Positions 32,601 through 56,892 of a stretch of 64,000 nucleotides of DNA are shown in pieces. The notes under the pieces are model-generated. The model ran no database searches and was not told the DNA's origin. It saw nothing but the letters and a program-made list of their open reading frames with translations. Every line of letters begins with the position of its first letter. The first letter of the stretch is position 1. Source of the DNA: Malacoraja senta (Eukaryota); contig CM075995.1 of the NCBI GenBank assembly GCA_038087875.1, forward strand, positions 5,892,001 to 5,956,000, in the 5' to 3' direction. Made by a program: the position numbers and the translations under genes.

Positions 32601-32684
32601 CAGAATGGGCTTATATTCACTGGAATAATAGATCGACTGGGCTTATATTGACTGGAATTTAGGATGAGAGGGGATCTTATAGAA

Positions 32685-35600
32685 GCAATAGAAAGGAAGG
32701 ACATTAGCTTGGAGGATGTGGAATCGATATGGGTAGAGCTGCGAAACATTAAGGGGCAGAAAACGCTAGTGTGTGTTGTGTACAGGCCACCTAACAGTAG
32801 TAGTGGAGTTGGGGATGGCATCAAACAGGAAATTAAAAATGCGTGCAACAAAGGTAAAACAGTTATAATAGGTGACTTCAATCTACATATAGATTGGGTG
32901 AATCAAATTGGCAGGGGTGCTGAGGAAGAGGATTTCTTGGAATGTATGCGGGATAGTTTTCTAAACCAACATGTAGAGGAACCAACGAGAGAGCAGGCTA
33001 TTCTAGACTGGGTATTGAGTAATGAGGAAGGGTTAGTTAGCAGTCTTGTTGTGCGTGGCCCCTTGGGCAAGAGTGACCATAATATGGTTGAGTTCTTCAT
33101 TAGGATGGAGAGTGACATTGTTAATTCAGAAACAAGGGTTCTGAACTTAAAGAAAGGTAACTGAGGGTATGAGATGTGAATTGGCCAAGATTGACTGGCA
33201 ATTGATTCTTAAAGGGTTGACGGTGGATATACAATGGAAGGCATTTAAAGACTGCATGGATGAACTACAACAATTGTTCATCCCAGTTTGGCAAAAGAAT
33301 AAATCAGGGAAGGTAGTGCATCCGTGGATAACAAGGGTAATCAGGGGTAGTATCAAAACAAAAGATGAAGCGTACAAATTAGCCAGAAAAAACAGCCTAC
33401 CAGAGGACTGGGAGAAATTCAGAGTCCAGCAGAGGAGGACAAAGGGCTTAATTAGGAAAGGGAAAATAGATTATGAAAGAAAACTGGCAAGGAACATAAA
33501 AACTGACTGCAAAAGTTTTTATAGATATGTGAAGAGAAAAAGATTAGTTAAAACAAATGTAGGTCCCTTGCAGTCAGAAACAGGTGAATTGACCATGGGG
33601 AACAAGGACATGGCAGACCAATTGAATAACTACTTTGGTTCTGTCTTCACTAAGGAAGACATAAATAATCTGCCGGAAATAGCAGGGGACCGCAGGTCAA
33701 ATGGGATGGAGGAACTGAGTGAAATCCAGGTTAGCCGGGAAGTGGTGTTAGGTAAATTGAATGGATTAAAGGCCGATAAATCCCCAGGGCCAGATAGGCT
33801 GCATCCCAGAGTACTTAAGGAACTAGCTCCAGAAATAGTGGATGCATTAGTAATAATTTTTCAAAACTCCTTAGATTCTGGAGTAGTTCCTGAGGATTGG
33901 AGGGTAGCTAATGTAACCCTACTTTTTAAAAAGGGAGGGAGAGAGAAAATGGGGAATTACAGACCAGTTAGTCTAACATCGGTAGTGGGGAAACTGCTAG
34001 TCAGTTATTAAAGATGGGATAGCAGCACATTTGGAAAGTGGTAAAATCATTGGACAAAGTCAGCATGGATTTACGAAAGGTAAATCATGTCTGACGAATC
34101 TTATAGATTTTTTGAGAATGTAACTAGTAGAGTAGATACATTGTTGGCGGCGCTGTCGAACAGCAGCGGCTCGCCTGCAGTCCGTCTGTTTTTACTTTTT
34201 TTGTTGTTTTCTTTTGTCCTGTTTTATTTAAATTTTAGTTTATTGGGTTGTGTATGTGTGGGGTGGGGGGGTGAAACATTATTTTTGTCTCTTCCTTCGG
34301 GGGAATGCGACTTTTTCTTGTCGTATCCCCCTTCTCTGCCTCCGTGTGCGCCGAGGCCTAATGGCGGAGCTGCCGGCCTCCAACTCCAACTGCGAGCGAC
34401 CGACCTCGAAGCTCCGGAGGCAGAGCCAGGACTTACCAGCGCGGGGCTGGCCGGCTTCGGGGCTGTGGTGGCGACCGAGGACACTGGTGGCGACCTGAAT
34501 CTGTAGGCTCGGCCGCGGGCCCGGTGGACGACATCGTTGGGAGCTTGCAGGTCACAGGTGGGTGACCTGTTTTTCTGGAGCTCCCGCAACTACAGCTGCG
34601 TCCGCTGGACTGGAGGGCGGCAGCTTCGGCAGCTTCGGCCACCCCGGGCCGCGGAGTTTGAACCGGCCCATCGCGGAGCACGGATTCAGCCGCGGGATTG
34701 ACTTACCATCACCCGGCGGGGTCACAACATCAGAAGCCTGGATCGCCTCGGCGCAGAGGAAGAACAAAGCGGGAAGAGACAGAGACTTTAAGACTTTTGC
34801 CTCCATCACAGTGAGGAGGTGCCTGGTGAACTCACTGTGGTGGATGTTAATTTGTGTTTATTGTGTGTTTTGTTATTTATTATTATATGTATGACTGCAG
34901 GCAACGAAATTTCGTTCAGACCGAAAGGTCTGAATGACAAATAAAGGAATCTCTAATCTCTAAGATAAGGGAGAACCAGTGGATGTGTTATATCTGGACT
35001 TTCAGAAGGCTTTCGACAAGGTCCCACATAAGAGATTAGTATACAAACTTAAAGCACACGGTATTGGGGGTTCAGTATTGATGTGGATAGAGAACTGGCT
35101 GGCAAACAGGAAGCAAAGAGTAGGAGTAAACGGGTCCTTTTCAGAATGGCAGGCAGTGACTAGTGGGGTACCACAAGGCTCAGTGCTGGGACCCCAGCCA
35201 TTTACAATATATATTAATGATTTGGACGAGGGAATTGAATGCAACATCTCCAAGTTTGCGGATGACACAAAGCTGGGGGGCAGTGTTAGCTGTGAGGAGG
35301 ATGCTAGGAGGCTGCAAGGTGACTTGGATAGGCTGGGTGAGTGGGCAAATGCATGGCAGATGCAGTATAATGTGGATAAATGTGAGGTTATCCACTTTGG
35401 TGGCAAAAACAGGAAATAGACTATTATCTGAATGGTGGCCGATTAGGAAAAGGGGAGATGCAACGAGACATGGGTGTCATGGTACACCTGTCATTGAAAG
35501 TAGGCATGCAGGTGCAGCAGGCAGTGAAGAAAGCGAATGGTATGTTAGCATGCATAGCAAAAGGATTTGAGTATAGGAGTAGGGAGATTCTACTGCAGTT

Positions 35601-36155
35601 GTAGAGGGTCTTAGTGAGACCACACCTGGAGTATTGCGTACAGTTTTTGTCTCCAAATCTGAGGAAAGACATTCTTGCCATAGAGGGAGTACAGAGAAGG
35701 TTCACCAGACTGATTCCTGGGATGTCGGGACTTTCATATGAAGAAAGACTGGATAGACTCGGCTTGTACTCGCTAGAATTTAGAAGATTGAGGGGGGATC
35801 TTATAGAAACTTACAAAATTCTTAAGGGGTTGGACAGGCTAGATGCAGGAAGATTGTTCCTGATGTTGGGGAAGTCCAGGACAAGGGGTCACAGTTTAAG
35901 GATAAAGGGGAAATCTTTTAGGACCGAGATGAGAAAAACATTTTTCACACAGATGCAGTATAATCTCAGGAATTCTCTGCCACAGAAGGTAGTTGAGGCC
36001 AGTTCATTGGCTATATTTAAGAGGGAGTTAGATGTGGCCCTTGTGGCTAAAGGGATCTGGGGGTATGGAGAGCAGGCAGGTACAGGATACTGAGTTGGAT
36101 GATCAACCATGAAGGGCCGAATGGCCTACTCCCGCACCTATTTTCTATGTTTCTA
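32685..36155 (+). mobile_element. CR1 ORF2 and 3' end (same subfamily as 6344-10881), interrupted by retroposon E
   Basis: ORFs 32664-33164, 33169-34011, 34979-35419 and 35614-36093 closely match the first CR1. Confidence 0.93.
34139..34962 (+). mobile_element. Non-coding retroposon, copy E, with a Rex1-type 3' tail
   Basis: TSD AGATA (34134-34138 and 34963-34967). 3' stem-loop TTCAGACC-GAAA-GGTCTGAA, then ATGACAAATAAAG and (AATCTCT)n. Confidence 0.8.
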
Positions 36156-37011: not shown

Positions 37012-40000
37012 TTACTTCGGAGTCACAGTGATTCCGTGAAGAAGACCCGTCAGGGCGCATGCGCGTCATTACGTCTGATGCATTGGCGCACGGACCAGCG
37101 GGAGGTCAGAGCTCCTGTGGTAAGTACTTTTAAAGTAATTTTAAACCCAGCTAAGTGGGAAAACTTAGCTGGAGTAACAAGTTGTTTTGTTGTGGTGCCG
37201 TGCTTTGTTTTTACAGGGCACCATGGTTGAAGACGACCAGGGGGAGGCGAGCCGCTGGTAAACAGGAGAGCCGCGGGAGTGCGGTCTGTGAGCGGCTGCC
37301 TCTTACCCCTGCACAGTCGCCGACCGGGAGCGGGGCGACTGCAGACTTGGTGCTACAAAGCACCAAAGCCAACGCCAGTTGGTCATAAGGCCAACGGAAA
37401 AGTCTGGGAGGCCCTCGGACTCAAATGGAGCACCTCATACAGAGGTTGCTCCAGCAATGCACACTCCAGGGGGAGGAGTCGTGTGGGCGGCAGGCTGCAG
37501 AAGAGGCCGCGCCGGCAGCACCTAGTAGAGGGCTGCTTGATAGCACCCTCATGGATGAGGTGAGTGCAGAGGGTCAGCTAAGTTCTGACCCCGACTCTGA
37601 CGGTGACTTGGAACTTAGCGAAGATGGCCGTTGTCAGAGGTCCCATCTCTGGCAGCACGATTCGCTGTCCCGTCAGAGTCTGGAGTGCCACTGGGAGATG
37701 AGCTGGCCTCCACGATATAGAGGCTGCTCGATAGCACCCTCATTGAAAAGGCGACTGCAAAGGGTCAGCTGAGTTCTGACCCCGACTCTGACGGTGAGTT
37801 CGAGCCTAGCGAAGACGGCCGTTGTCAGAGGTCTTATCTCTGGCAGCACGATTCGCTGTCCCGTCAGAGTCTGGTACCGCCAAGAAACAGGAGACCCGGG
37901 GAACTGCGTGTTGCTGAAGGTGCCAGCAGTGAACCGGGTGATATGGAGCCAGATGGGCGTGGGCAGGTGTGCCCAGGAGATGAAGCTGCAGAGAATCCTG
38001 AAACTACTTGGCTCAGGAATCACGGCGTTCGCTAGAATGGTGGATGGAGGGCATATGTCGGAGACGCAGCAAGACGTACTAGGGTTGCTTTGTAGCGCCC
38101 ATTTTGAGATAAATTGTCTCAGGGAAAGTGCCATTCAGCCCACCATTAATCCCAAGGTTGCAGCCCTCTGCCAGCCCAGCAACATACAGCCGGCCAACCT
38201 ACTCTTCGGAGAGGACCTAGCCAAGCGTGTCAAGGAGATAGATGACGAGGCAAAGATGGTGGGCTTGATCAAGCCACCGGCTGTCGGCAAGTTTCCAAAA
38301 AGGAAAGTACCCCTACGAACGAGGGACAGATTGGTCTGGACCAGGAACAAGTCGGCCAGCAATGCAGATGCGCAGGTGGCATTCTGCAGCGGGAACACGG
38401 TCAAACGTCGGCTTTCCTGCCAGGAGCCGGGAACAACGTGATCCACCAGGTACCAAGGAGGTAGGTGGGCCTGGTTCTCAGGTGCACATATCAAATGTGA
38501 CACAACTAAAATCTGGGGGTACATTACATCTGTTCCGGGATGAATGGAAGCAAATTACCTCAGCTCTGTTTATACTGAGTGTTATTCAAGGGTTTCGAAT
38601 GGAGTTCAATCCAAATTGTGATTTGCACATTCAGCATGTTCCAGGGAGAACTCTTCAGTTTTTATTAACAGAACAGATGGAGGTTCAGACTGTGCTTGGA
38701 AGCTTATGTGATAAAGGTGGAATTGGAAAGTCGGTTCACCAACCCATCAATTTGTGTCTAATATTTTCCCAGGCCAAAAAAGGATGGGGGATGCAGTATA
38801 GACATTGTAAGATGGAATTGTCACTGCCAAGCAACTGGGTCAAGAGGATGCTATATGGCGACTATAGAGCTTAAATATGCGGATTACTCAATGTCTGTTC
38901 ATTTGCAGGATAGAGGATATTTGAAATTCACCTGGATGGATCAACTATGGCACAAAATTGTTAAAACCTATAATAGGCATGCTGAGAGACCAGGGTCAGG
39001 TGCTCATGGCTTATCCCAATGATATCTTGATTACAGGGGTATCCAAGAGAACAGCTGAAGTACCGTGGTAGTTGTTAAATCCAATTTTCAAAGATTGGGC
39101 ATTATTGATCCAGAGAAATCCAAATTAACACCTGACTATTTGGGTCACAATTGATTCAATTAAGTGACTGCCCAGGGAGAAAGGGTAGAGCTAATTGACA
39201 GCTGTATCAAGCTAATGGAGGCACTAAGGATACATTCGGGTCATTATAATAGACCCATGCAGTTATCAGCAGAGGCTGTTTCTGATTTGCAATGGTGGAT
39301 TCACCATGTGTCCAGGAGTTCTAGCAAGGTAGTGCTTGACCAGCCTTCCATGATTTTGCAGATGAATGTCAGTGCACTCGGCTGGGGTGTCACGGATACG
39401 AGTTTCAGCTGTGGAGGCAGATGGACTGAGCAAGAGGCATCGCTTCTGCAGACATGGGGAATTAACTATTAAGAGCTTTTTATGGTTAAGGCTTATTGCT
39501 CTAACAAAGGTAACCTGCATGTTCAGTTTCAGATTGACAATACTACGGCAGTGGCATATATATTAATCACATCGGTGGAATCAAGTCGGTATCTTGTGAC
39601 AGATTGGCTAATCAAAGTTGGGCCTGGTCCATTGAAAAAGATATTTGGTTTTCAGCTATTTATCTACCAGGTAGATTCAACATAGTAGCAGACGCCAGGT
39701 CACGAAAGTTCCATGACAACACAGATTGGATGTTGAACCAGGAGGTGTTCAATAATATAGTACTTATATATGAATGTCAGATATCAATTTGTTTTGCATC
39801 GAGGTTTAACCACCAGCTGCCTAAATATGTTTCAATTGATGCTTTCTCGCTACATTGGTGTGGTATGTTTTTATATATTTTCCCACCATTCTGCCTCATA
39901 GGTCGGAGTCTGCAAAAAATCAAGCAGTATGTCGCTTCGGGGATGCCTGTAATACCTAATTGCCAGACTCGAGCATGGTTCCCTTTGATGTTACAGTTAG

Positions 40001-40333
40001 CGATCCAACCTCCTTTGGTGGTTCCCAAGCATAGGAATATACTGGAGCATCCGCTGACACGGGAAAGTCATCCGTTATGTGATCGTATTGACTTGTTCAT
40101 TTGCAGGTTTTAAGAAGGCCATACCTGGGGCGAGGACTGTCTGGGCGAACGGTGGACATGCTCACTGCAGCCTGGAGAAAGAGTACTCAAAAGCGGTATA
40201 TTACTTATGTAAAAAAAATGGGAGCAATATTGTGTACAAAATAATATTGACTATAGTACTGCAGGTATTGTGGATATTTTAGAGTTCCTGTCGACAGTCT
40301 ACGATGATGAGGGGCTCAGATACAGCACCATTA
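37012..40333 (+). mobile_element. DIRS1-like tyrosine-recombinase retrotransposon, decayed and 3'-truncated
   Basis: Gag-like segment (LLFGEDLAKRVKEI), RT start (GGTLHLFRDEWKQIT), RNase H (SALGWG, QIDNTTAVAYI, YLPGRFNIVADARSR), methyltransferase-like domain (FASRFN...DAFSLHW...YIFPPF), and the start of the YR (LEFLSTVYDDEGLRYSTIN). Confidence 0.88.
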
Positions 40334-43015
40334 ATATGGCGACACGCCCAGATATGGCGACATTCCCAGATATGGCGACACGCCTGGATATGGCGACATT
40401 CCCGGATATGGCGACACCCCCCGATATGGCGAGTTACCCGGGTATGGCGACATTCCCTGATATGGCGACATTCCCGGATATGACGACATTCCCGGATATG
40501 ACGACATTCCCGGATATGGCGACTTGCCCGGATATGGCGACTTGCCCGGATAGGGCGACACGCCCAGATATGGCGACACGCCCGGATATGGCGACACGTC
40601 CGGATATGGAGACACACCCAGATATGGCAACTTACCCGGGTATGGCGACATTCCCGGATATGGCGACGCCCGGATATTGCGAACTACCCTGGTATGGCGA
40701 CATTCACGGATATGGCGACATTCACGGATATGGCGACATTCACGGATATGGCGACATTTCCGGATCTGACGACATTCCCAGATATGGCGACATACCCGGA
40801 TATGGCCACATCCCCGGATATGGCGACATTCCCGGATATGGCGACATTCCCGGATATGGCGACAATCCCTGATATGGTGACACGCCCGCATATGGGAACA
40901 TGCCTGGATATGGCAACTTACTCGGATATGGCGACTTTCACGGATATGGCGACACGCCCGGATATGGCGACAATACCGGATATGGCGACATGCCAGGATA
41001 TGGCGACATACCCATATATGGCGACTTGCCGGGATATGGCGACAGGCCCGGATATGGCGACACGCCCGCATATGGCGACATTCCCGGATATGGCGACATT
41101 CCCGGATATGGCGACATTGCCGGATATGGCAACATTGCCGGATGTGGCGACATTCCCGGATATGGCGACATTCCCGGATATGGCGATGCCCAGATATGGC
41201 GACATTCCCGGATATGGCGACATTCCCGGATATGGCGACATGCCCGGATATGGCGACATGCCCGGATATGCTGACATTCCCGGATATGGCGACATCCCCG
41301 GATATGGTGACATTCCCGGATATGGTGACATTCCCAGATATGGCGACCATCCCTGATATGGTGACACGCCCGGATATGGGATCATGCCTGGATATGGCGA
41401 CACGCCCGGATATGGCAACTTACCCGGATATGGCGACTTTCCCGGATATGGCAACATACCCGGATATAGCGACACGCCCGGTATGGTGACAGGCCCGGAT
41501 ATGGTGACACGCCCGGATATGGCGACACGCCCGGATATGGCGACATTCTTGGATATGGCGACACTCCCGGATATGGAGACTTACCCGGGTATGGCGACAT
41601 TCCCGGATATGGCGACATTACCGGATATGGCGACATTCCCGGATGTGGCGACATACCCGGATATGGCGACTTGCCCGGATATGGCGACACGCCCGGATAT
41701 GGCGACACGCCCGGACATGGCGACACGCCCAGATATGGCGACACGCCCGGATATGGCGACATTCCCGGATATGGCGACATTCCCGGGTATGGCGACATTC
41801 CCGGATATGGCGACATTCCCGGGTATGGCGACATTCCCGGATATGGCGACATTACCGGATATGGCGACATTCCCGGATATTGCGATATTGCCGGATATGG
41901 CGACATTCCCGGATGTGGCGACATTCCCGGATGTGGCGACATTCCCGGATGTGGCGACATTCCCGGATATGGCGACTTGCCCAGATATGGCGACATTCCC
42001 GGATATGGCGACATGCCCGGATATGGCAATATGCCCGGATATGCTGACATTCCCGGATATGGCGACATGCCCAGATATGGCGACATGCCCGGATATGGCG
42101 ACATTCCCGGATATGGCGCCATTCCCAGATATGGCGACATACCCAGATATGGTGACATTCCCGGATATGGCGACGTCCGGATATTGCGAACTACCCGACT
42201 ATGGCCACATTCCCGGATATGGCGATATTCCTGGATATGGCGACATTCCCGGATATGGCGACATTCCCGGATATGGCAACATTCCTGGTTATGGTGACAT
42301 TCCCGGATATGGCGACTTGCCTGGATATGGCAAAATTCCCGGATATAGCAACATTCCCAGATTTGGCGAAATTCCCGGATATCGCGACATGCCCAGATAT
42401 GGCGACATTCCCGGATATGGCGACAAGCCCGGATATGGCGCCATTCCCGGATATGGCGACATTCCCGGATGTGGCGACTTACCCGGATATGGCGACTTAC
42501 CCGATATGGCGATATTCCTGGATATGGCGACATTCCCGGATATGTCGACATTCCCGGATATGGCGACTTACCCGGATATGGCGACTTACCCGGATATGGC
42601 GACTTACCTGGATATTGCGAACTACCCGGGTATGGCGACATGCCCAGATATGGCGACATTGTCGGATATGGCGACATTGTCGGATATGGCGACATTCCCG
42701 GATGTGGCGACATTCCCGGATATGGCGACTTGCCCAGATATGGCGACATTCCCGGTTATGTCGACACGCCCGGATATGGCGACATTCCCGGATATGGCGA
42801 CATTCCCGGATATGGCGACTTTCCCGGATATGGCGACTTACCCGGATATGGCGACTTACCCGATATGGCGATATTCCCGGATATGGCAACATTCCCGGAT
42901 ATGTCGACATTCCCGGATATGGCGACTTACCCGGATATGGCGACTTACCCGGATATGGCGACTTACCCGGATATGGCGACTTACCTGGATATGGCGACTG
43001 GCCCGGATATGGCGA
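40334..43015. repeat. 18-bp tandem satellite, left arm (~150 units)
   Basis: Consensus GGATATGGCGACATTCCC with variants ...GACACGCCC, ...GACTTACCC and ...GACATGCCC. Confidence 0.98.
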
Positions 43016-43804
43016 TGAAAAAGTTACTTTTATAACTACTAAACCAGGTTCGCTTCTCAATAAACAGACACCACACAAACTGTTTGGTAGACCAGTTCAA
43101 AACTTTACTTAACATCGGCCGATGGAAGGGAGCGAGAATTCCAGCTAAGTGACCAATGTAGACACTCGACTGTCCTCGGTCCCCTTCTCTGAACAACAGA
43201 ATTACATCGCATTATATAGTGTTTCTTTGTCACATTAGCACATTCTACAGACATTAGTCATGGTCAGAGGTACAGGAAAAGGCATCACATCAAAGGCCTT
43301 TTGTTTACAGGTTATGATACACTAAAAACATTGGCCTTTTGTTTTAGGTCATTTTATCTTCAAAGAGATCTTTCGCTGTTTCCTCTCTGTCACTTGGTCC
43401 TTCATAACCATAGGCCATTTGTTTTATGGCATCTTATCTTCAAAGAGATCACCCTAGCTCTTTCGCTGTTTCCTCTCTGTCACTTGGTCCTTCATAAACA
43501 TAGGCCATTTGTTTTATGGCATCTTATCTTTCCACTTCCCTGGATCCTCTCTCATCACTTCGCCCCTCCTAAACATTGGTCATTTGGTTTACGGCATCTT
43601 ACTTCAAAGATGTGACTAGCTGTTTCTTTCTCTGTCACTTCCTCACTTGGGAGACAATGTTATGGTATTTATTATCTCAATACCCCAAAACCCGAGGCAA
43701 CTTAACTTGCCTTTCTGTATTATTCTACTGGAGAAAAGCCTGATTTGAGACTAAATATAAGCTGTAAGCTTTTCTTATATTTTTAACATAATTCAGCTTT
43801 ATCA
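43016..43804 (-). repeat. ERV 3' LTR (~789 bp)
   Basis: Direct repeat of 47725-48524. Preceded on the minus strand by the PPT AAAAGGATGGAA (43805-43816). Confidence 0.95.
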
Positions 43805-45299
43805 TTCCATCCTTTTATCAAAATCTTGATAATAACTACAGTCCTTGCCGAGTACATACGAAAGACCATAAGCATCTCATCAGGCAAATTATCTCACTGT
43901 CTGTAGTCAGGGTATCTTTGCTGCATTTGTCATGTTTGACTCCAATCTTGTTTAAAAGGATGTGTGTACCATCCTTTAAATGTGGGTTAGTCCGCAAGTT
44001 TGCCATTCTGAAGAAAGTCCAGTCCATGTGGGCCACCCCAGAATAAAAGAGGGTCAATAGCTCCACAAACCGTTCACAGTCAATCAAATGTATCCAACGA
44101 CGATGATCTTCAATCTTCACAGCAGTTTATGTTGTTGATAGCACTTGGTTTTTCCTTTCAACACAATCTCAATTTCTTCTTGTCCCAGCACATGGTCATT
44201 TTGTAGCCTTTATGGACTCGTCCCTGTGCTCACAGCTCCTCTAACCTGGGAATGCAGATCTGGCAAGACCTGGGTTAATTGCTGTCCATACATAATTAGT
44301 TAATTGCCCAGGGCCTGTAGTTGGCTTCCCCCCACTCTCCAGGGGGTGGGCACAGCAGCCTTTCCTGTATCAATAAAAAAGTTGTAAATTCTGTTTCTCT
44401 AGCTGCAGTTGAATGACCCCAATCTACTCTGAAGAAGGGCTTCGGCCCAAAATGATGCCTATTTCCTTCGCTCCTTTGATGCTGCTTCATCCCCTGAGTT
44501 TCTCCAGCACTTTTGTCTACCTTTGATTTTCCAGCATCTGCAGTTCCTTCTTAAACACTAAATTCTCCAAATATGTTCTCTTCCCCAATCTACTTATCTT
44601 CTCACCTTTTATCCCTCATTGTGAGATCCCTCAAACCCCCTTTTGTAAGCCATAAGACAATTTTACATGTACATTCATTTCCCTTACACAGCACATGCTT
44701 CAACACCTTTGTTCGTCTGCAGACCGTAATCTTGCTTCATTTGCATTTTAAAGGACAACCTCTGTTATCACATCAAAACAATCTTTCCCAAAAGAACTCA
44801 CTCAGAATCAGTAATCAATAATACATTTTCTTTTTCTCTGTAATTTTGACATTTCCAATCTCATTTAACACTTTAATTGGGATGAGTCTCTTTTTGAACT
44901 CGGCTCAAAAGATTTATAACAACCAACACATTTTATCATTTGAGTATAGCTCCACCCCCCATTCATGGCAGTGTCTTAAAGGAACACACCATAACCTGCC
45001 TGTTCATTTGCATTTTAAAGGACAAACTGTTCTTAAAGGGACACACACCTTTGCTCATTGCTTCAAATTTCACACATTCCACATACAAAAAACATTGTTT
45101 TACAAGCAGTACATACACACAAAAAAATTGTTTTACCAGCAGTATATAATATTTCATCTTCAAAGACATCTCTTTGTAATTTACTTTCCCTTTTTCTGAC
45201 AAGACCCGTTTACCAGAATCCTGGTTACCTAACCCTAATTGGACTTTGATCCAGATCATGATTAGTCAGACTCCCCGTGACGTTTCAGTCTCCCTATCC

Positions 45300-45976
45300 T
45301 ATCCTCATTTCTCCACCGAATTTGTCTTCATCCCCAATTTTTCTATAACATAGTTGCTTGTCAGAAAAAGGATTCCCCCGGGGTAATTTTGTTTTGCAAT
45401 GCCCCATAGGCTCTTTCGACCATCCCAGATGCCTGTGGGTGATGTACACAGTGAAATTGCTGTCGGATATAAAAATGTGTACATATTTCCTTATTAATAG
45501 TGGCAATAAAATGGGGACCATTGTCCAAGCTTATGACAGTAGGTAGGCCAAACCTGGGAATAACTTCCCTTAACACCAATGTTACTGTAGTCTCAGCAGT
45601 ATCATTAGTGGTTGGTAGAGCTTCAATCCACCTGCTAAATAAATCAAAAAATAACTAAGCAATATTTATAACACTGGGCCCTTGGCATTTCAATAAAATC
45701 AATCTGTATGCATTCAAACGGTCGTGATGGCATTGGTGTCACCCCTGAGGGTATCCTAATTGGTTTGCCTGGATTCTTTCGTTGGCAAATTTTACATTCA
45801 GAGGCCTGCTTCAGTGCCTCTTGCCGGATTTTTGGGTGCCACCACGTCTCTTTTGTCATCCTTATCATTCCATCCTTACCAGCATGGGTAAGTGAGTGAA
45901 TATATGTTAGTAAAACAGGTAAAAATGCATCAGATACACCAACTTGTCCAAGCGGGGTGAGCCGAATCAATGGCAC
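45300..45976 (-). pseudogene. pol: Retroviral integrase, frameshifted
   Basis: HSLTHAG...CKIC zinc-binding motif, IQIDFIEMP, IPRFGLPTVISLDNGPHF and HPQASGMVER. A detached C-terminal piece TAVKIEDHRRWIH lies at ~44080-44150. Confidence 0.88.
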
Positions 45977-46080
45977 AGCCCTCTTGTTTCCATAGTTATT
46001 TTTATATATGAGAGGCGTCCCTCTGTAATGTACATACCTCCCTCATGTTTGGCAGGACCGTTCTATTTGCTAGTATCTGT

Positions 46081-46914
46081 TTACCAGATGTCACTAAGCA
46101 TTTGGATGCAATAGGCTGTTTGTTTGGCTACACTATCGGCAAATGCATTGCCTTTTGTTATAGGGTCCCCAGCACCAGTGTGTGCAGCACATTTAATAAT
46201 GGTCAGCTGTTCTGGTATCATCAATGCCTTAAGCAAATAACGCACAGAAAGGCATTCCCGTGCTCCCAATCCTGGGGAGCTTTGTAAGGTCAGAACTTCA
46301 AGGTATAGGGATATTACTGACGGAGCTGTCACAGGTAAGTATGCCATCGCTACTGGTAGGACGTAGGGAGGTGGACATCTCCCAGGATTATCTAACTCCT
46401 CATCTTCACTACCAAACAAGGTCGTCGTGCCAGACATGAAGTCTCCTCCAGAGGATTTACCAGTACTGAGGTTATTTTTACTAACCATCACCTGTTTCTC
46501 ACCTCCTGCCTGTCTCTTAATTATTTTCTCTTGTTCCTCTGCCCACTGGCATTCTAGTTGCAATACTTTCCATCCTTTCATAGTGCCATCATTATTTCGT
46601 AACTCTATCCCTTGTTTACACGCCGTATCCATCCAACTTCGATCTCTACTCTCCTCGTGCTTCTTTTCTGCTTCTGCTTTCCACGTTTTAATTCCCTTCT
46701 TCCATTTCTTTCCTGCCTTCCTTTCCCATATCAACATTTCTGCTTTTTTAATTGTCTCGACATTCCATGTGCCCCCCACTGGCCAGGCTTCATCCCCCAA
46801 CCGTTTGGTCAACTTGTAACTTAACATTCTAAATTTCTTATTATACTTAGGATTCAAATAACACATATGTTGGACGGGGGTTCCCCCCTCACTGTTATCC
46901 AGAGCATTACCCAT
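46081..46914 (-). CDS. gag: Truncated Gag (matrix + late domain) fused in frame to the RNase H C-terminus, 277 aa
   Basis: MGNALD start, WPVGGTW matrix motif and PPPY, then IIKCAAHT...KGNAFADSVAK. Confidence 0.75.
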   Translation of the reverse strand: MGNALDNSEGGTPVQHMCYLNPKYNKKFRMLSYKLTKRLGDEAWPVGGTWNVETIKKAEMLIWERKAGKKWKKGIKTWKAEAEKKHEESRDRSWMDTACKQGIELRNNDGTMKGWKVLQLECQWAEEQEKIIKRQAGGEKQVMVSKNNLSTGKSSGGDFMSGTTTLFGSEDEELDNPGRCPPPYVLPVAMAYLPVTAPSVISLYLEVLTLQSSPGLGARECLSVRYLLKALMIPEQLTIIKCAAHTGAGDPITKGNAFADSVAKQTAYCIQMLSDIW

Positions 46915-47705
46915 AGATAGATAGAGAGAAAGAGAAAGAGAAAGCAGACTTCTGAATTCCGAATCGTTCCAAATATATCAACCAGGCCGACTCGCTACTC
47001 GAGACCCCAGTTTCTCAATTTGGCTGATTTTTTATTTTTCTTTACCTCTTTGATATACGACCCAAGTGTCTCAACAAGGCCGACTCACTAACCGAAACCC
47101 CCGTTTCTCAACCTGGCAGACCTAAAATAAGCCCCATGTGTCTCAACGAAGCAGACCCGCTAACCGAGACCCCGTTTCTCAACCTGGCAGACTTCTTACT
47201 CTTTAATATACAACGCCACTTATTTCTCAATCTGACAACTCTTCGGATGTCTCAATAAGCCAGATGCACACCTCAACCCCCGTATCTCAACCCGACAAAT
47301 CACGGATATCTCAACGAGGCCGATGAGCCCTTAGTAGAGAGAGAGAGAGAAGAAAAAAACAAAGAGAGATAGACAGAGAGAGAGAAACAGAAACCACTCA
47401 CGTCCTTCTTAACAATATACACAAGCCCATCTTAAAAATACATGCACAATTCTGTCTTAAAAATACATACACAATCCCTTCTTAAAAAAAAAACCTATAA
47501 AGCCCAACTGGTCTTACCTTGGTCTGTTTCTAAGAACCTCGGCAGGGAACCTGGATCAACCTCTGATGAAGGATCACAGACGTTCCCGGGAGTTTCTAGG
47601 GAGTCGGTCTTACAAGGGGGCCGATAGAGCTCAGTTATCTCCCTTCCAATCCCGGCAACCTCTGCAACCTCTTGCACAGTCAGCCGTTGATGTGGTCCCA
47701 GCGAG

Positions 47706-47723
47706 GCCTGCATAACTACGCCA
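47706..47723 (-). promoter_or_regulatory. ERV primer-binding site TGGCGTAGTTATGCAGGC (tRNA-Ser-like, imperfect)
   Basis: Adjacent to the 5' LTR. Its first 9 nt are complementary to the tRNA-Ser 3' end (...ACTACGCCA). Confidence 0.7.
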
Positions 47724-47724
47724 A

Positions 47725-48524
47725 TGAAAAAGTTACTTTTATAACTACTAAACCAGGTTCGCTTCTCAATAAACAGACACCACACAAACTGTTTGGTAGA
47801 CCAGTTTCAAAACTTTACTTAACATCGGCCGATGGAAGGGAGCGAGAATTCCAGCTAAGTGACCAACGTAGACACTCGACTGTCCTCGGTCCCCTTCTCT
47901 GAACAACAGAATTACATCGCATTATATAGTGTTTCTTTGTCACATTAGCACATTCCACAGACATTAGTCATGGTCAGAGGTACAGGAAAAGGCATCACAT
48001 CAAAGGCCTTTTGTTTACAGGTTATGATATACTAAAAACATTGGCCTTTTGTTTTAGGTCATTTTATCTTCAAAGAGATCACCCTAGCTCTTTCGCTGTT
48101 TCCTCTCTGTCACTTGGTCCTTCATAACCATAGGCCATTTGTTTTATGGCATCTTATCTTCAAAGAGATCACCCTAGCTCTTTCGCTGTTTCCTCTCTGT
48201 CACTTGGTCCTTCATAAACATAGGCCATTTGTTTTATGGCATCTTATCTTTCCACTTCCCTGGATCCTCTCTCATCACTTCGCCCCTCCTAAACATTGGT
48301 CATTTGGTTTACGGCATCTTACTTCAAAGATGTGACTAGCTGTTTCTTTCTCTGTCACTTCCTCACTTGGGAGACAATGTTATGGTATTTATTATCTCAA
48401 TACCCCAAAACCCGAGGCAACTTAACTTGCCTTTCTGTATTATTCTACTGGAGAAAAGCCTGATTTGAGACTAAATATAAGCTGTAAGCTTTTCTTATAT
48501 TTTTAACATAATTCAGCTTTATCA
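47725..48524 (-). repeat. ERV 5' LTR (~800 bp)
   Basis: Direct repeat of 43016-43804. Followed on the minus strand by the PBS. Confidence 0.95.
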
Positions 48525-51500
48525 GCGACATGCCCAGACATGGCGACTTACCCGGATATGGCGACACGCCCGGATATGGCGACACGCCCGGATATGGCGA
48601 CACGCCCGGATTTGGGGACATGCCCGGATATGGCGGCACGCCCGGATATGACGTCTTTCACGGATATGGCGACATACCTGGATATAGCGACACGCCCGGT
48701 ATGGTGACACGCCCGGATATGGTGACACGCCCGGATATGGCGACACGCCCGGATATGGCGACATTCTCGGATATGGCGACACCCCCGGATATGACGACTT
48801 ACCCGGGTATGGCAACATTCCCGGATATGGCGACATTCCCGGATATGGCGACATTCCCGGATATTGCGACACCCGGATATTGCGAACTACCCGGGTATGG
48901 CGACATTCCCAGATATGGCGACATTGTCGGATATGGCGACATTCCCGGATGTGGCGACATTCCCGGATATGGCGACATTCCTGGATACGGCGACTTGCCC
49001 AGTTATGGCGACATTCCCGGTTATGGCGACATGCCCGGATATGGCGACATGACCGGATATGCTGACATTCCCGGATATGGCGACATGCCCGAATACGGCG
49101 ACATTCCCGGATATGGCAACATTCCCGGATATGGCAACATTCCCGGATGTGGCGACATACCCAGATATGGCAACATTCCCGGATATGGCGACATTCCCGG
49201 ATATGGCGACATTCCCGGATATGGCGACATTCCCGGATATGGCGACATTACCGGATATGGCGACATTCCCGGATATGGCGACATATCCAGATATGACGAC
49301 TTGCCCGGATATGGCGACACGCCCGGATATGGCGACATGCCCTGATATGGCGACACGCCCGCATATGGCGACATTCCCGGATATGGCGACATTCCCGGAT
49401 ATGGCGACATTCCCGGATATGGCGACGTCCGGATATTGCGAACTACCCGGGTATGGCGACATTTCCGGATATGGCGACATTTCCGGATCTGACGACATTC
49501 CCGGATATGGCGACATACACGGCTATGGCCACATTCCCGGATATGGCGACATTCCCGGATATGGTGACATCCCCAGATATGTCGACATTCCCGGATATGG
49601 CGACATTCCTGGTTATGGCGACATTCACGGATATGGCGACTTGCCTGGATATGGCAAAATTCCCGAATATAGCAACATTCCCAGATTTGGCGACATTCCC
49701 GGATATGGCGACTTACCCGGATATGGCGACATTCCTAGATATGGTAACATTCCCGGATATGGCGGCGTACCTGGATATGGCGACATTCCCGGATATGGTG
49801 ACTTACCCGGATATGGCCACATTCCCAGATATGGCGACATTCCCGGATATGGCGACATGCCCGGATATGGCGACATTCCCGGATATCGCGACATTCCCGG
49901 ATATGGCGACTTACCCGGATATGGCGACTTACCCGGATATGGCGACTTACCCGGATATGGCGACCGGCCCGGATATGGCGACATGCCCAGATATGGCGAC
50001 TTACCCGGATATGGCGACACGCCCGGATATGGCGACACGCCCGGATATGGCGACACGCCCGGATATGACGACTTTCCCGGATATGGCGACATACCCGGAT
50101 ATAGCGACACGCCCGGTATGGTGACACGCCCGGATATGGCCACATTCCCAGATATGGCGACATTCACGGATATGGCGACACGCCCGGATATGGCGACATT
50201 CCCGGATATCGCGACATTCCCGGATATGGCGACATTTCCGGATCTGACGACATTCCCGGTATATGGCGACATACACGGCTATGGCTACATTCCTGGATAT
50301 GGCCACATTCCCGGATATGGCGACATTCCCGGATATGGTGACATTCCCGGATATGTCGACATTCCCGGATATGGCGACATTCCTGGTTTTGGCGACATTC
50401 ACGGATATGGTGACTTGCCTGGATATGGCAAAATTCCCGAATATAGCAACATTCCCAGATTTGGCGACATTCCCGGATATGGCGACTTACCCGGATATGG
50501 CGACATTCCTAGATATGGTAACATTCCCGGATATGGCGACGTACCTGGATATGGCGACATTCCCGGATATGGTGACTTACCCGGATATGGCCATATTCCC
50601 AGATATGGTGACATTCCCGGATATGGCGAGACGCCCGGATATGGCGACATTCCCGGATATCGCGACTTACCCGGATATGGCGACTTACCCGGATATGGCG
50701 ACTTACCCGGATATGGCGACCGGCCCGGATATGGCGACATGCCCAGATATGGCGACTTACCCGGATATGGCGACTTACCCGGATATGGCGACTTACCCGG
50801 ATATGGCGACCGGCCCGGATATGGCGACATGCCCAGATATGGCGACTTACCCGGATATGGCGACAGGCCCGGATATGGCGACACGCCCGGATATGGCGAC
50901 ACGCCCGGATATGACGACTTTCCCGGATATGGCGACATACCCGGATATAGCGACACGCCCGGTATGGTGACACGCCCGGATATGGGCACATTCCCAGATA
51001 TGGCGACATTCCCGGATATGGCGACACGCCCGGATATGGCGACATTCCCGGATATCGCGACATTCCCGGATATGGCGACTTACCCGGATATGGCGACTTA
51101 CCCGGATATGGCGACTTACCCGGATATGGCGACCGGCCCGGATATGGCGACATGCCCAGATATGGCGACTTACCCGGATATGGCGACAGGCCCGGATATG
51201 GCGACACGCCCGGATATGGCGACACGCCCGGATATGACTTTCACGGATATGGCGACATACCCGGATATAGCGACACGTCCGGTATGGTGACACGCCTGCA
51301 TATGGTGACACGCCCGGATATGGCGCCACGCCCGGATATGACGACTTTCCCGGATATGGCGACATACCCGGATATAGCGACACGCCCGGTATGGTGACAC
51401 GCCCGGATATGGTGACACACCCGGATATGGCGACACGCCCGGATATGGCGACATTCTCGGATATGGCAACACCCCCGGATATGGCGACTTACCCGGGTAT

Positions 51501-53264
51501 GGCGACATTCCTGGATATGGCGACATTACCGGATATGGCGACGCCCGGATATTGCGAACTACCCGGGTATGGCGACATTCCTGGATATGGCGACATTTCC
51601 GAATCTGGCGACATTCCCGGATATGGCGACATTCCCGGATATCGCGACATTCCCGGATATGGCGACATTTCCGGATCTGACGACATTCCCGGTATATGGC
51701 GACATACACGGCTATGGCGACATTCCCAGATATGGTGACATTCCCGGATATGGCGACATTCCTGGTTATGGCGACATTCACGGATATGGCGACTTGCCTG
51801 GATATGGCAAAATTCCCGAATATAGCAACATTCCCAGATTTGGCGACATTCCCGGATATGGCGACTTACCCGGATATGGCGACATTCCTAGATATGGTAA
51901 CATTCCCGGATATGGCGACGTACCTGGATATGGCAACATTCCCGGATATGGTGACTTACCCGGATATGGCCACATTCCCAGATACGGCGACATTCCCAGA
52001 TATGGCGACATTCCCGGATATGGCGAGACGCCCGGATATGGCGACATTCCCGGATATGGCGACATTCCCGGATATGGCGACTTACCCGGATATGGCGACT
52101 TACCCGGATATGGCGACTTACCCGGATATGGCGACACGCCCGGATATGGCGACACGCCCGGATATGACGACTTTCCCGGATATGGCGACATTCCCGGATA
52201 TAGCGACACGCCCGGTATGGTGACACGCCCGGATATGGCCACATTCCCAGATATGGCGACATTCCCGGATATGGCGACACGCCCGGATATGGCGACATTC
52301 CCGGATATGGCGACATTCCCGGATATGGCGACTTACCCGGATATGGCGACTTACCCGGATATGGCGACTTACCCGGATATGGCGACCGGCCCGGATATGG
52401 CGACATGCCCAGATATGGCGACTTACCCGGATATGTCGACAGGCCCGGATATGGCGACACGCTCGGATATGGCGACACGCCCGGATATGACGACTTTCAC
52501 GGATATGGCGACATGCCCGGATATAGCGACACGCCCGGTATGGTGACACGCCTGGATATGGTGACACGCCCGGATATGGCGCCACGCCCGGATATGACGA
52601 CTTTCCCGGATATGGCGACATACCCGGATATAGCGACACGCCCGGTATGGTGACACGCCCGGTATGGTGCCACGCCCGGATATGGTGACACACCCGGATA
52701 TGGCGACACGCCCGGATATGGCGACATTCTCGGATATGGCAACACCCCCGGATATGGCGACTTACCCGGGTATGGCGACATTCCTGGATATGGCGACATT
52801 ACTGGATATGGCGACGCCCGGATATTGCGAACTACCCGGGTATGGCGACATTCCTGGATATGGCGACATTTCCGGATCTGGCGACATTCCCGGATATGGC
52901 GACATTCCCGGATATGGAGACACTCCCTGATATGGTGACACGCCCGGATATTCAGACATGCCCGGATATGGCGACACGCCCGGATATGGCGACATTCCCG
53001 GATATGGCGACTTACCCGGATATGGCCACATTCCCAGATATGGCGACATTCCCGGATATGGCGACTTACCCAGATATGGCGACATCCCCGGATATGGCGA
53101 CATGCTCGGATATGGTGACATGCCCGGATATGGCGACACTCCCGGATATGGCGACACGCCCGGATCTAGCGACACGCCCAGATAGGGCGACACACCCGGA
53201 TATGGCGACACGCCCAGATATGGCGACATTCCCGGATATGGCGACACGCCCGGATATGGCGACA
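48525..53264. repeat. 18-bp tandem satellite, right arm (~260 units)
   Basis: Same unit and same diagnostic variants as the left arm. Confidence 0.98.
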
Positions 53265-54171
53265 ATTCATGTCGCCATTCCTTCACTCTTTGAACAGACT
53301 TTCTTATTTACAGTACAATTAACTGCATGTTGTAAGCCTGGACTTATTCCCCTCTCTGCCTCCAACTAATTGGCTGATAATTCTGTCAATACTCTTGTTT
53401 CTTTCAGCCACATGAACATGCGTTACTGTTCCACATCAGTAGGTGTCCTACATGCACCTTCCCATCATATTGCTGCATCTAGCCCCATATCAAGATGCAG
53501 TCCTTGTGGTAAACCTGTATTAACAAGCCTGAATTACACATTCTGACGTTGTGTCATTTGCCTTCGTACGCTTAATACAAACAGATAGAATTGGCAGTTT
53601 ATTTTATGAATGTGTGACTCAATTGAATAAAGGCAAATTACAATTAAACTGTTTCTGCTACATTGTGAGTGCAAGGTTCCTCATTTTACCAATGCACTCT
53701 GCTACCAATAATAATGCTGTTATGCAGAACTGCAGATGGCCAGTTATTTACCACGGTTGTTGAGCTTAAATTTTGAAAGCTATTGCAAACAATGTATAGC
53801 AGACAATACATCTAGTTTTTATCTTGTAGATCATATGCTCTATAAAACTCGGTTTCTCTGTCAGCTTTATTGGCGGTGTGCGTGATCTATTTACATGTTT
53901 TTTTCTTGCAAATTTCTAACAATTCTTAGTTTAAATAATGGGAACAGAATGTAGAACAGTACACCACAGGAACAGGCCCTTTGGCTCACTGTCAGTGTTG
54001 ACGATGCCAAGTTAAACTAATCTACTCTGCCTGCATGTGAACCATACCCCAACATATGCTGCACATACACTACCATATCTGACTCCACCACTATCCCTGA
54101 CATGGCATTCAAGGCACCCACCTCTCTGTGTAAAAACACTTGCCCGCACATCTATGTATATTCTTTTAAAA

Positions 54172-54244
54172 GTGTGTGTGTGTGTGTGTGTGTGCCCGCG
54201 CGCGCGCGCGCGTGCGTGCGTGCGTGCGTGTGCTTGCGTGTGTG
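54172..54244. repeat. (TG)n/(CG)n/(TGCG)n microsatellite in the Helitron head
   Basis: Directly visible alternating purine-pyrimidine tract. Confidence 0.9.
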
Positions 54245-56425
54245 AAAAGCTTATCCACGTCAACTCTGTCTATCCCTCTCATTAACCTTCTGCGCTCCAA
54301 AGAATAAAGCCCTAACTTGTTCAACCCTTCTCTGTAACTTAGTTGCTGAAACCCAGGCAACATTCTAGTAAATCCCCTCTGTACTCTCTCTATTTTGTTG
54401 ACATCCTTCCTATAATTAGGCGACCAAAATTGTACACAATACTCCAGAATTGGCCTCACCAATGCCTTGTACAATTTTAACATTACATCCCAACTTCTAT
54501 ACTCAATGCTCTGATTTATAAAAGCCAGCACACCAAAAGCTTTCTTTACCACCCTATCTACATGAGATTCCACTTTCAGGGAACTGTGCACAGTTATTCC
54601 AAGATCCCTCTGTTCACCTGCATTCTTCAATTCCCTACCATTTACCATGTACGTCCTATTTTGATTTGTCCTGCCAAGATGTAGCACCTCACACTTATCA
54701 GCATTAAACTCCATCTGCCATCTTTCAGCCCACTCTTCCAACCGGCATAAATCTCTCTGTAGACTTTGAAAATCTACTTCATTATCCACAGCCCCTCCTA
54801 TCTTAGTATCATCTGCATACTTACTAATCCAATTTACCACACCATCATCCAGATCATTGATGTACATGACAAACAACAGTGGACCCAACACAGATCCCTG
54901 TGGCACCCCACTAGTCACTGGCCTCCAACCTGACAAACAACCATCCACCATTACTCTCTGGCATCTCCCATTCAGCCACTGTTGAATCCATCTTGCTACT
55001 CCACCATTAATACCCAACCATTGAACCTTCTTAACCAACCTTCCGTGAGGAACCTTGTCAAATGCCTTACTGAAGTCCATATATACAACATCCATGGCTT
55101 TACCCTCATCAATTTCCCGACTAACCTCTTCAAAAAATTCCAGAAGATTAGTCAAACATGACCTTCCAGGCACAAATCCATGTTGACTGTTCCTAATCAG
55201 CCCCTGTTTATCCAGATGCTTATATATATTATCTCTAAGTATCCTTTCCATTAATGTGCCCACCACTGACGTCAAACTAACAGGTCTATAATTGCTAGGT
55301 TTATTCTTAGACCTCTTTTTAAACAATGGAACAACATGCGCAGTACGCCAATCCTCCGGCACTATTGCCGTTTCCAATGACATTTGAAATATTTCTGTCA
55401 TAGCCCCTGCTATTTCTACACTAACTTCCCTCAATGTCCTAGGGAATATCCTGTCCGGACCTGGAGACTTATCCACTTTTATATTTCTCAAAAGTGTCAG
55501 TACTTCCTCTTCTTTGAATCTCATAGTTTCCATAGCTACTGTACTTGTTTCCCTTACCTCACATAATTCAATATCCTTCTCCTTGGTGAATACCGAAGAA
55601 AAGAAATTGTTCAATATCTCCCCCATCTCTTTTTGGCTCTGCAGATAGCTGTCCACTCTCACTCTCTAATGGACCAATTTTATCCCTCGTTATCCTTTTG
55701 CTATTAATATAGCTGTAGAAACCCTTTGAATTTACTTTCACCTTACTTGCCAAAGCAACCTCATATCTTCTTTTAGCTTTTCTAATTTCTTTCTTAAGAC
55801 ACTTTTTACATTTTTTATACTCCTCAAGCACCTCATTTACTCCATGCTGCCTATAATGATTGTAGATCTCTCTCTTTTTCCGAACTAAGTGTCCAATTTC
55901 CCTTGAAAACCATGGCTCTTTCCAATTTTTACTATTTCCTTTCAACCGAACAGGGACATAAAGATTCTGTACTCTTAAAATTTCACCTTTAAATGTCCTC
56001 CATTTCTCTTCCACATCTTTCCCATAAAACAAACTGTCCCAATTTACTCATTTTAAATCCTTTCGCATCTCCTCAAAGTTAGCCTTTCTCCAATCAAAAA
56101 TCTCAACCCTAGGTCCAGTTCTGAACCTCTCCATAATGATATTGAAACTAATGGTATTGTGATCACTGGTCCCGAACTGTTCCCCAACGCATACCTCTGC
56201 CACCTGACCCGTCTCATTTCCTAACAGGAGGTCCAGCACCGCCCCTTCTCTAGTAGGTACTTCTATGTATTGCTGCAAAAAACTATCCTGCACACATTTT
56301 ACAAACTCCAACCCATCCAGCCCATTTACAGAATGTGTTTCCCAGTCTATGTGTGGAAAATTGAAATCTCCCACAATCACTACCTTGTGCTTACTACTAA
56401 TATCTGCAATCTCCTTACAGATATT
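54245..56425 (-). pseudogene. CR1 ORF2 fragment (end of APE through RT) inside the Helitron; no 3' UTR or tail
   Basis: ORFs 56048-56518, 55568-56032 and 54166-55662 ([14 protein letters not shown]). Confidence 0.9.
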
Positions 56426-56892
56426 ACTCATGTTACCCCTAAACTTCTGTCCCTTAATTCTCAAATCATGTCCTCTTGTTTGAATCTTCCCTACTCTCAA
56501 TGGAAAAAGCTTATCCACGTCAACTCTGTCAATCTCATCATTTTAAAGACCTCTATCCAAGTCCCCCCTTAACCTTCTGCGCTCCAAACAATAAAGATCT
56601 AACTTGTTCAACCTTTCTCTGTAACTTAGTTGCTGAAACCCAGGCAACATTCTAGTAAATCTCCTCTGTACTCTCTCTATTTTGTTGACATCCTTCCTAT
56701 AATTAGGCGACCAAAATTGTACTCCATACTCCAGAATTGGCCTCACCAATGCCTTGTACAATTTTAACATTACATCCCAACTTCTATATTCAATGCTCTG
56801 ATTTATAAAGGCCAGCACACCAAAAGCTTTCTTTACCACCCTATCTACATGAGATTCCACCTTCAGGAAACTATGCACAGTTATTCCTAGAT
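56426..56892 (-). pseudogene. Second, overlapping CR1 ORF2 C-terminal fragment inside the Helitron
   Basis: Repeats 54245-54605 (LGITVHS...ERRRLRGD) with point differences. No tail. Confidence 0.88.

Follow-up and report, generated by a model that had tools for sequence, protein, structure and literature searches.

How did a retroviral genome that lacks most of its genes, and whose integrase is broken, come to stand between two nearly identical long terminal repeats (LTRs)? This question is raised by a minus-strand endogenous retrovirus (ERV) of the window, i.e., the whole stretch of 64,000 nucleotides that was analysed. The results make it very probable that the element belongs, as one copy among many, to an old non-autonomous class I ERV family and was mobilised in trans.

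The provirus and its interior

The features of the locus are the following:

40334-43015, no strand: 18-bp satellite array, left arm, 149.5 copies
43012-43015, no strand: 4-bp target-site duplication (TSD) GCGA, left copy
43016-43804, minus: 3' LTR, 789 bp, with tandem repeats of ~90 bp inside
43805-43816, minus: polypurine tract (PPT), 11 purines of 12
43817-44060, minus: ~245 bp at the expected place of env, with no env match
44061-44415, minus: decayed integrase C-terminal part, at least one frameshift, stops near 44300, 44210 and 44127
44428-44557, plus: 130-bp high-copy interspersed repeat, Penelope-type by motif resemblance only
44558-45381, no strand: ~820-bp AT-rich segment splitting the integrase, origin unassigned
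45382-46110, minus: integrase zinc-binding and core domains, broken (frameshifts near 46110, 45960 and 45649; stops at 46002 and 45996)
46084-46914, minus: 277-aa open frame in which a Gag matrix-type N-terminus with PPPY is followed, in frame, by the RNase H C-terminal tail
46251-46280, minus: gag/RNase H deletion junction (contig breakpoints at 46251-46252, protein matches switching near 46280)
46915-47705, minus: 5' leader with short imperfect repeats
47706-47723, minus: stretch resembling a primer binding site (PBS), with a TGG start at the expected place
47725-48524, minus: 5' LTR, 800 bp
48525-48528, no strand: 4-bp TSD GCGA, right copy
48525-53264, no strand: 18-bp satellite array, right arm, 264 copies

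Paired LTRs, TG...CA ends and a short TSD define the element as a provirus. Once aligned, the two LTRs differ by 3 substitutions upon 788 bases (0.38%, with a Poisson 95% range of 0.08-1.1%) and by two indels, of 1 bp and 10 bp, as a preliminary description had counted by eye. The duplication of GCGA on either side of the element, within the satellite, is likewise confirmed: among ~306 GCGA-to-GCGA intervals listed, a spacing of 4 occurs just once, at the insertion site, the remaining ones being 18 or a multiple of 18 almost everywhere. The TSD is thus no by-product of the satellite repeat. A DIRS-like identity was considered for the open reading frames left of the satellite, and Pfam gave no confirmation.

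The cis signals are retained, i.e., two LTRs, a PBS-like site, a leader and a PPT. The PBS-like stretch lies one base past the 5' LTR; the PPT, which had been claimed and is clear, adjoins the 3' LTR on its upstream side. The 5' leader is likely the packaging region. ARAGORN found no tRNA gene in the window.

Neither Pfam nor tblastn with 173 relatives gave any match to capsid, protease, reverse transcriptase (RT) or env in the interior, which agrees with the initial claim. Nucleocapsid is also missing. The element is non-autonomous in its coding capacity: capsid, RT and a working integrase are not encoded. A candidate env remnant (43839-44054) was rejected, Pfam giving a sub-cutoff adenovirus match, ESM Atlas unrelated matches (≤0.90) and tblastn none.

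What remains of gag and pol is of two kinds. On the one hand, a single uninterrupted frame of 277 codons runs from Gag matrix/PPPY straight into the RNase H tail, the join being in frame, with both the N-terminal Gly and PPPY retained, i.e., a Gag-Pol fusion of the type known from mouse IAP 1Δ1. Relative to P0007 and P0030, ~3.8 kb are absent at this deletion. The top PDB matches of the tail are XMRV/MLV-type RNase H. On the other hand, the integrase carries about 9 breaks. It had been called frameshifted, which is correct (three frameshifts in 46110-45382) and understated: the same part contains two stops, an insert of ~960 bp divides the gene, and the C-terminal part is decayed, although still recognisable (9/9 relatives score 72-107 vs. 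shuffle maxima of 45-59).

The 130-bp repeat differs from its closest copies in the window at 8 of 64 bases, far above the LTR-pair difference. By eye, it holds at 44438-44464 what we take to be a hammerhead-like core. Rfam gave no hammerhead match, and only two matches, at chance level, over 43700-47800. The insert that the earlier reading called decayed and Penelope-like is a very high-copy repeat, the Penelope label being a motif resemblance only; Penelope-like elements carry minimal hammerheads according to the available text of PMC6155905.

The ~820-bp segment is covered in 4/4 runs, with a depth 0.5-1.25 times that of the remaining interior bins; its linkage to its neighbours in other copies is indicated by this even depth, no listed contig bridging 45382. 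As inverted or diverged pol or gag it was rejected: minus-strand scores (31-48) are within or at the edge of the shuffle maxima, and the best plus-strand score is 74 vs. a shuffle maximum of 71. Integrase helix residues read by eye at ~44650-44560 obtained no support from alignment scores.

It must be noted that LTRs only 0.38% apart enclose the integrase breaks, the gag/RNase H deletion, the loss of env and two inserts, which was counted in favour of old defects.

Relatives and other copies

The order gag, RNase H, integrase, with an MLV-type RNase H and integrase C-terminus, is that of a class I ERV, and the integrase C-terminal part aligns to MLVIN_C-bearing proteins. RT is deleted; the tree is one of integrase (38 rows, all class I-type, with no class II or III outgroup). 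There, the element and pols of skates and sharks form a clade of 5 rows (support 100/98), outside the gammaretrovirus clade; WEHV1 is not resolved beside it. Judged from sequence, the element probably belongs to a class I (epsilon-like) ERV family of skates, «epsilon-like» having the wide meaning that PMC4977317 gives it for fish class I ERVs.

The nearest named relatives are skate ERVs. In an alignment that spans RNase H and the integrase N-terminus, P0052 (Amblyraja radiata) agrees with the element at 103 of 127 residues. Both P0052 and P0009 (Leucoraja erinacea) retain the upstream RNase H, whereas the element has lost that part. The same set of close class I ERVs also includes P0059, again from Leucoraja erinacea. 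The predicted P0004 (Rhinoraja longicauda) has a Gag matrix joined straight to the integrase C-terminus which, provided that its gene model is unspliced, makes it another deletion than that of the element.

Contig evidence on other copies comes from 32 listed pieces upon ~123,700, 40 of 287 variants and 12 indels, and contig depth is not convertible to copy number. All 30 bins are covered in 4/4 runs. No RNA run was listed as containing the element, a result without bearing on expression; the RNA rows X15-X20, of small share, are not part of the evidence. Three of the 32 listed pieces, 9-11% diverged from the window, span the gag/RNase H junction: X3 record 20 (organism B, 24 differences upon 230), X8 record 30 (organism D, 31 upon 273) and X2 record 12 (organism A, 26 upon 284), the last one only if the junction is at ~46252. 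None of the 8 listed pieces of X1 bridges it. An unrelated protein record, P0003, has 78% identity over residues 160-275 and an identical junction peptide; by eye, its tail is frame-shifted as in the element. Defects are thus shared among several copies and the deletion is not unique to this locus.

Four of the 32 listed pieces (X1 records 2, 4 and 5; X2 record 13) depart from the window sequence at a junction and continue unlike it; consequently, undeleted relatives exist. The undeleted fragments diverge by 10-14% from the window. Open Gag relatives are P0002 and P0007. No full-length pol close to the element was found: with the skate RNase H as query, the best matches reach 48-53% identity. 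A homolog search started from the zinc piece of the integrase retained 0 of 14 candidates at 1e-10 (weak evidence), and relatives of P0001 were confirmed neither among 9 pattern matches in viral contigs nor among 265 in metagenome contigs.

Among the variants and indels listed, 4/40 and 2/12, respectively, are near-fixed in organisms B and D and rare or absent in A, which suggests, at the level of these sequences, a separate amplification per lineage. The LTR : interior depth ratio in contigs is 3-6, depth not being a copy number, and hints at solo LTRs.

Order of decay and integration

At the shark rate implied in the available text of PMC4422223, the LTR difference corresponds to about 9 My (range 2-25). 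The qualification of the element as young and recently active is thus acceptable for its LTRs in a relative sense only. The LTR clock predicts 1.45 breaks in the integrase stretch; P(≥9) is 2e-5 at the point estimate and 0.08 at the upper 95% bound. The defects predate the integration, since the junction is common to contigs 9-11% diverged in other organisms and to P0003; and because they are older than the integration, enzymes in trans were needed. Both proposals made at the outset, i.e., an interior defective before integration and a non-autonomous copy made in trans, are supported by these data. The third, a helper retrovirus, is logically required, but no intact one was identified, only the diverged undeleted fragments.

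A defective master copy would have been transcribed from its own 5' LTR, and its RNA packaged, reverse-transcribed and integrated by the Gag-Pol of a related intact ERV (candidate helper). After that round, which probably took place a few million years ago, the two LTRs would have been identical again, and the satellite would have carried the 4-bp TSD.

An addition compatible with mobilisation in trans, possible although doubtful, is that selection keeps the fusion frame open, its putative product aiding its own RNA in cis. The fused frame has 0 breaks upon 831 nt vs. 9 upon 1075 nt for integrase (P = 0.006 if breaks are uniform, 0.018 with 7 breaks), its deletion is in frame, Gly and PPPY persist, and 4/8 of its listed variants are synonymous vs. 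1/8 in integrase, numbers too few for significance. On the contrary, (i) an in-frame join has a 1-in-3 chance regardless; (ii) integrase may have died before gag, or recombination with the helper may have refreshed the 5' part; (iii) P0003, P0007, P0011 and P0055 begin only at residue 160, and P0011 and P0055 end after 45 aa; (iv) a 1-bp insertion at 46474 represents ~15-17% of depth in X3 and X8; (v) the frame has no capsid.

It is improbable that an old defective provirus decayed in situ, its LTRs being later homogenised by gene conversion or assembly collapse and the other copies arising by DNA-level duplication, e.g., unequal crossing-over in the satellite. The 7.4-kb satellite setting does make recombination plausible, and the flanks of other copies fall outside the listed contig pieces (1752 loose ends). 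Nevertheless, interior and LTRs are equally young: the share of the interior's words present is 0.60 in X1 and 0.57 in X2, i.e., a divergence of at most about 1.6-1.8%, and one contig (X2 record 10, 44726-45015) is identical across 290 bp at a depth of 363, five of the eight listed X2 pieces being at depth 2-11. Collapse of the LTRs, which had been named as a possible source of their identity, is contradicted by the differences at 47805 and 47867, private to the right LTR and absent from nearly all X1 and X2 depth. The left and right satellite arms have no exact 90-mer in common.

A loss of gag-pol and env from an intact virus during the one reverse transcription that produced this copy, the rest decaying later, is most improbable: retroviruses are known to undergo large deletions at that step, but this scenario is largely refuted by the junction shared with diverged contigs of other organisms and P0003, and the ~9 breaks plus two inserts far exceed the expectation of the LTR clock.

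Comparison with known systems

Mobilisation in trans of such an element is a new example of a mechanism already known from mice, not a new mechanism, since non-autonomous ERVs are well known in mice. The closest is IAP 1Δ1, a class II ERV. In the available text of PMC6466679 and PMC7411935, an internal gag-pol deletion of 1.9 kb leads to an in-frame Gag-Pol fusion ORF, Gag and Pol are needed in trans, and the fusion product is described as aiding mobilisation in cis. The element resembles it by the fusion and by the dependence on Gag and Pol in trans. It differs by its class (I) and probable skate host, by a larger deletion (~3.8 kb) and by a broken and split integrase; moreover, any present-day activity of the element and the cis role of its fusion are putative.

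As in mouse ETn/MusD (PMC6466679, same portion), an LTR element without useful coding capacity is mobilised by a related coding ERV, but the skate element keeps clear gag and pol remnants and its helper is only deduced. The deleted insertion 23 of coelacanth CoeERV1-1, as presented in the accessible part of PMC4255032, is also an epsilon-like fish ERV with TSDs of 3-5 nt, loss of major Gag and Pol parts and internal sequence without known similarity. That part describes one deleted insertion, whereas the skate deletion is common to several organisms, in a shark/skate clade.

No description of such a skate ERV family was found in the open literature (subscription journals, Repbase and Dfam being outside the scope). 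The family appears to have amplified in several related species. Its value is taxonomic and temporal: the LTRs are 0.38% apart vs. 2.4-3.3% for the LTR pairs of elephant shark CmiERV, the old cartilaginous-fish ERVs described in PMC4422223 (available text). Its many dateable insertions can serve as lineage markers, and the family is a test case for truncated Gag fusions as a recurring trick of parasitic ERVs. A wider reading, unlikely at present, is that for tens of millions of years a skate ERV lineage has persisted in several species as a hyperparasite, with a separate amplification in each and with selection keeping the capsid-less Gag matrix/PPPY-RNase H frame for cis action. If so, some copies may still be insertionally polymorphic, and cartilaginous fish would have their own class I counterpart of mouse IAP 1Δ1.

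LTRs, target site and age of the copy

47725-48524, minus strand: 5' LTR, ends TG...CA
43016-43804, minus strand: 3' LTR, ends TG...CA
40334-43015 and 48525-53264: two arms of the 18-bp satellite hosting the ERV

The near-identical LTRs, GCGA duplication and PPT of the preliminary description are recovered, as is a candidate PBS. Alignment of the LTRs gives 0.38% substitutions (3 of 788 aligned bases; Poisson 95% range 0.08-1.1%), one 10-bp and one 1-bp indel. GCGA is present on both flanks of the ERV (4-bp TSD). Since the satellite itself holds GCGA, spacings of this motif were counted: among about 306 satellite intervals listed, the insertion site is the only one with a spacing of 4. A putative PBS and a PPT (11/12 purines) lie at the expected positions. 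Several reading frames of the satellite, with GYGDIP and PDMATF repeats, run through hundreds of codons without a stop; within its right arm, unlike the left, long stretches are duplicated (161 repeated 126-mers).

At 47805 and 47867 the right LTR carries differences of its own, thus the LTRs have not been collapsed into one in the assembly. In PMC4422223, an LTR divergence of 0.033 is dated to 75 My (~2.2e-10/site/year, called uncertain by its author). At this rate 0.38% would correspond to about 9 My (range 2-25 My): the small divergence stands, and «recently active» holds in a relative sense only.

Contig sets X1 and X2 (organism A) contain 0.60 and 0.57 of the element's words, respectively, hence a divergence of at most about 1.6-1.8% from the copies of organism A. 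One X2 piece (rec 10) matches 290 bp of the integrase-splitting segment identically at depth 363, five of the eight listed X2 pieces being at 2-11; contig depth is not equal to copy number and is taken solely as an indication of multiple copies. Among the 40 variant rows shown (of 287), 14 have the window at odds with 90% or more of the depth in X1 and also in X2; 12 of the 14 fall in the interior and set a minimum of 0.3%, in agreement with the LTR clock. Variants near-fixed in organisms B and D and rare or absent in A (4 of 40 shown variant rows, 2 of 12 shown indel rows) suggest that the family amplified separately after the lineages split.

Gag-RNase H fusion and integrase

46914-46084, minus strand: single open frame of 277 codons, Gag start plus RNase H tail
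near 46110, 45960 and 45649, minus strand: integrase frameshifts
46002 and 45996, minus strand: integrase stops (all five breaks in 4/6 alignments)

The interior is gutted, as first described: ~3.8 kb is missing, i.e., the remaining Gag, protease, RT and most of RNase H (computed against proteins P0007 and P0030), and no env match was found in the only ~245 bp separating integrase from PPT. The first ~210 residues of the fused frame match Gag (53% over 214 columns to P0002, a Gag of 566 aa that has a zinc knuckle; 43/53 identical to P0007, which continues into the remaining Gag) and the last ~55 match the RNase H tail. Contig breakpoints place the junction at 46251-46252; protein matches switch near 46280. 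In P0004, a predicted protein of Rhinoraja longicauda, the same Gag matrix is joined straight to the integrase C-terminus; it is possibly a second deleted derivative of the lineage, or a spliced gene model.

The integrase is frameshifted, as reported, but the damage is larger. It also has stops, breaks off at 45382 and picks up again at ~44415-44070, where 9/9 relatives score 72-107 (shuffle maxima 45-59). This C-terminal part is decayed: it has one frameshift or more, and stops lie near 44127 (9/9 relatives), 44210 (7/9) and 44300 (5/9). The gap holds a 130-bp repeat and a segment of ~820 bp, the latter without match among 173 fetched proteins. The repeat has five further copies in the window (8/64 bases differ from the nearest of the five compared) and a depth of hundreds of thousands to millions in 4/4 runs. 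At its site, contigs of X2 (organism A, at 44552) and X8 (organism D, at 44561) run into different sequence; family versions without the insert seem to exist. A 26-bp motif with the octamer ATGCAAAT (minus strand) occurs twice in the segment (44736-44761 and 45003-45028) and could represent an enhancer or a piece of an LTR. Next to the break-off point, two 15-bp stretches separated by 153 bp form a perfect inverted repeat (45189-45371); a small inversion or a MITE-like piece is possible, and neither strand matches pol.

Parts of the stretch occur in public runs of eight organisms (20 rows, 11 studies). Four of these rows (X1, X2, X3 and X8), each a set of contigs, were mapped on 43620-48030. 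Among the 32 pieces listed of about 123,700, the junction is bridged by X3 rec 20 (organism B; 24 differences/230), by X8 rec 30 (organism D; 31/273) and, only if it lies at ~46252, by X2 rec 12 (organism A; 26/284); 0 of 8 listed X1 pieces bridge it. Independently of contigs, protein P0003 has 78% identity over residues 160-275 with the same junction peptide, its tail being frame-shifted alike by eye. The integrase stretch has 9 breaks against 1.45 expected on the LTR clock (P = 2e-5; P = 0.08 at the upper bound of that clock). From the bridging contigs, P0003, the 130-bp insert and the excess of breaks, it follows that a copy with LTRs 0.38% apart carries defects common to copies about 10% away. 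The interior was thus defective before integration, as had been proposed, and the deletion is not unique to this locus.

Lineage and surroundings

By its integrase and RNase H sequences the element is assigned to class I, and, RT being deleted, to a class and not to a genus. In the integrase tree, built from 38 rows (the window and 37 proteins; 39 had been hand-picked from 173, two of which overlapped too little), it groups with pols of skates and sharks in a clade of 5 rows (support 100/98), outside gammaretroviruses. Epsilon-like ERVs are described as a major class in fish in PMC4977317. The relatives that bear a species name come from skates (Amblyraja radiata, Leucoraja erinacea, Rhinoraja longicauda), e.g., P0052 of Amblyraja radiata with 103/127 aligned residues matching; a skate is therefore the probable host. 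Two-thirds of P0052, which is annotated as «myc-associated zinc finger protein-like», consist of ERV RNase H/integrase, joined to C2H2 fingers; the protein is probably a gene-model artefact and possibly an ERV-host chimera.

37773-40333, plus strand: ORF fragments, the last frame of which passes straight into the satellite at 40334
25-2911, 6694-10608, 22011-27758, 31467-36093 and 54166-57130: dense remains of ORFs, Gypsy-like and LINE-like (endonuclease/RT), decayed, judged by eye

By eye the former resemble a DIRS-type retroelement, with pieces like RNase H, a methyltransferase and the N-terminus of a recombinase; Pfam gave for these ORFs a sub-cutoff PCIF1_WW match only.

Helper, alternatives and known systems

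On established retroviral biology such a copy requires a helper, a related ERV being the candidate. Cis signals are present, enzymes are absent, defects are shared and the copy is young. Very probably, a defective master RNA would have been packaged by the Gag-Pol of a related ERV, then reverse-transcribed and integrated by it. Four of the 32 listed pieces depart from the window sequence and are then unlike it, at 46251-46252 (X1 recs 4 and 5, X2 rec 13) or at 45382 (X1 rec 2); they are 10-14% diverged. Open Gag relatives exist (P0002, P0007). A close full-length pol was found neither among the best matches (48-53% identical to the skate query) nor by a further homologue search. Overall, the first observation is real and its interpretation mostly borne out, recent activity being weakened.

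Selection keeping the fused frame open, an addition to trans mobilisation and not exclusive of it, is rather unlikely. In its favour, no break falls within the 831 nt of the frame, against 9 over the 1075 nt of integrase (P = 0.006), and synonymous changes make up 4 of the 8 variants shown for the frame and 1 of the 8 for integrase. However, several protein records begin at residue 160 or end early, an insertion at 46474, common in X3 and X8, shifts the reading frame, and the integrase possibly just died earlier. Beside trans mobilisation of a master with shared defects, LTR conversion or duplication at the DNA level has little probability, and deletion in one step hardly any.

The paper listings and abstract openings searched gave no description of this skate family. 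A heavily deleted epsilon-like copy is on record in coelacanth (PMC4255032). In mouse IAP 1Δ1, according to PMC6466679 and PMC7411935, a gag-pol deletion creates a fusion ORF, Gag and Pol act in trans and the fusion aids in cis. The window ERV, with its gag-pol deletion and fusion ORF, probably works in the same manner as regards supply in trans, and its fusion may help in cis; it probably works like ETn/MusD too. It is a further example of an already known kind of element.
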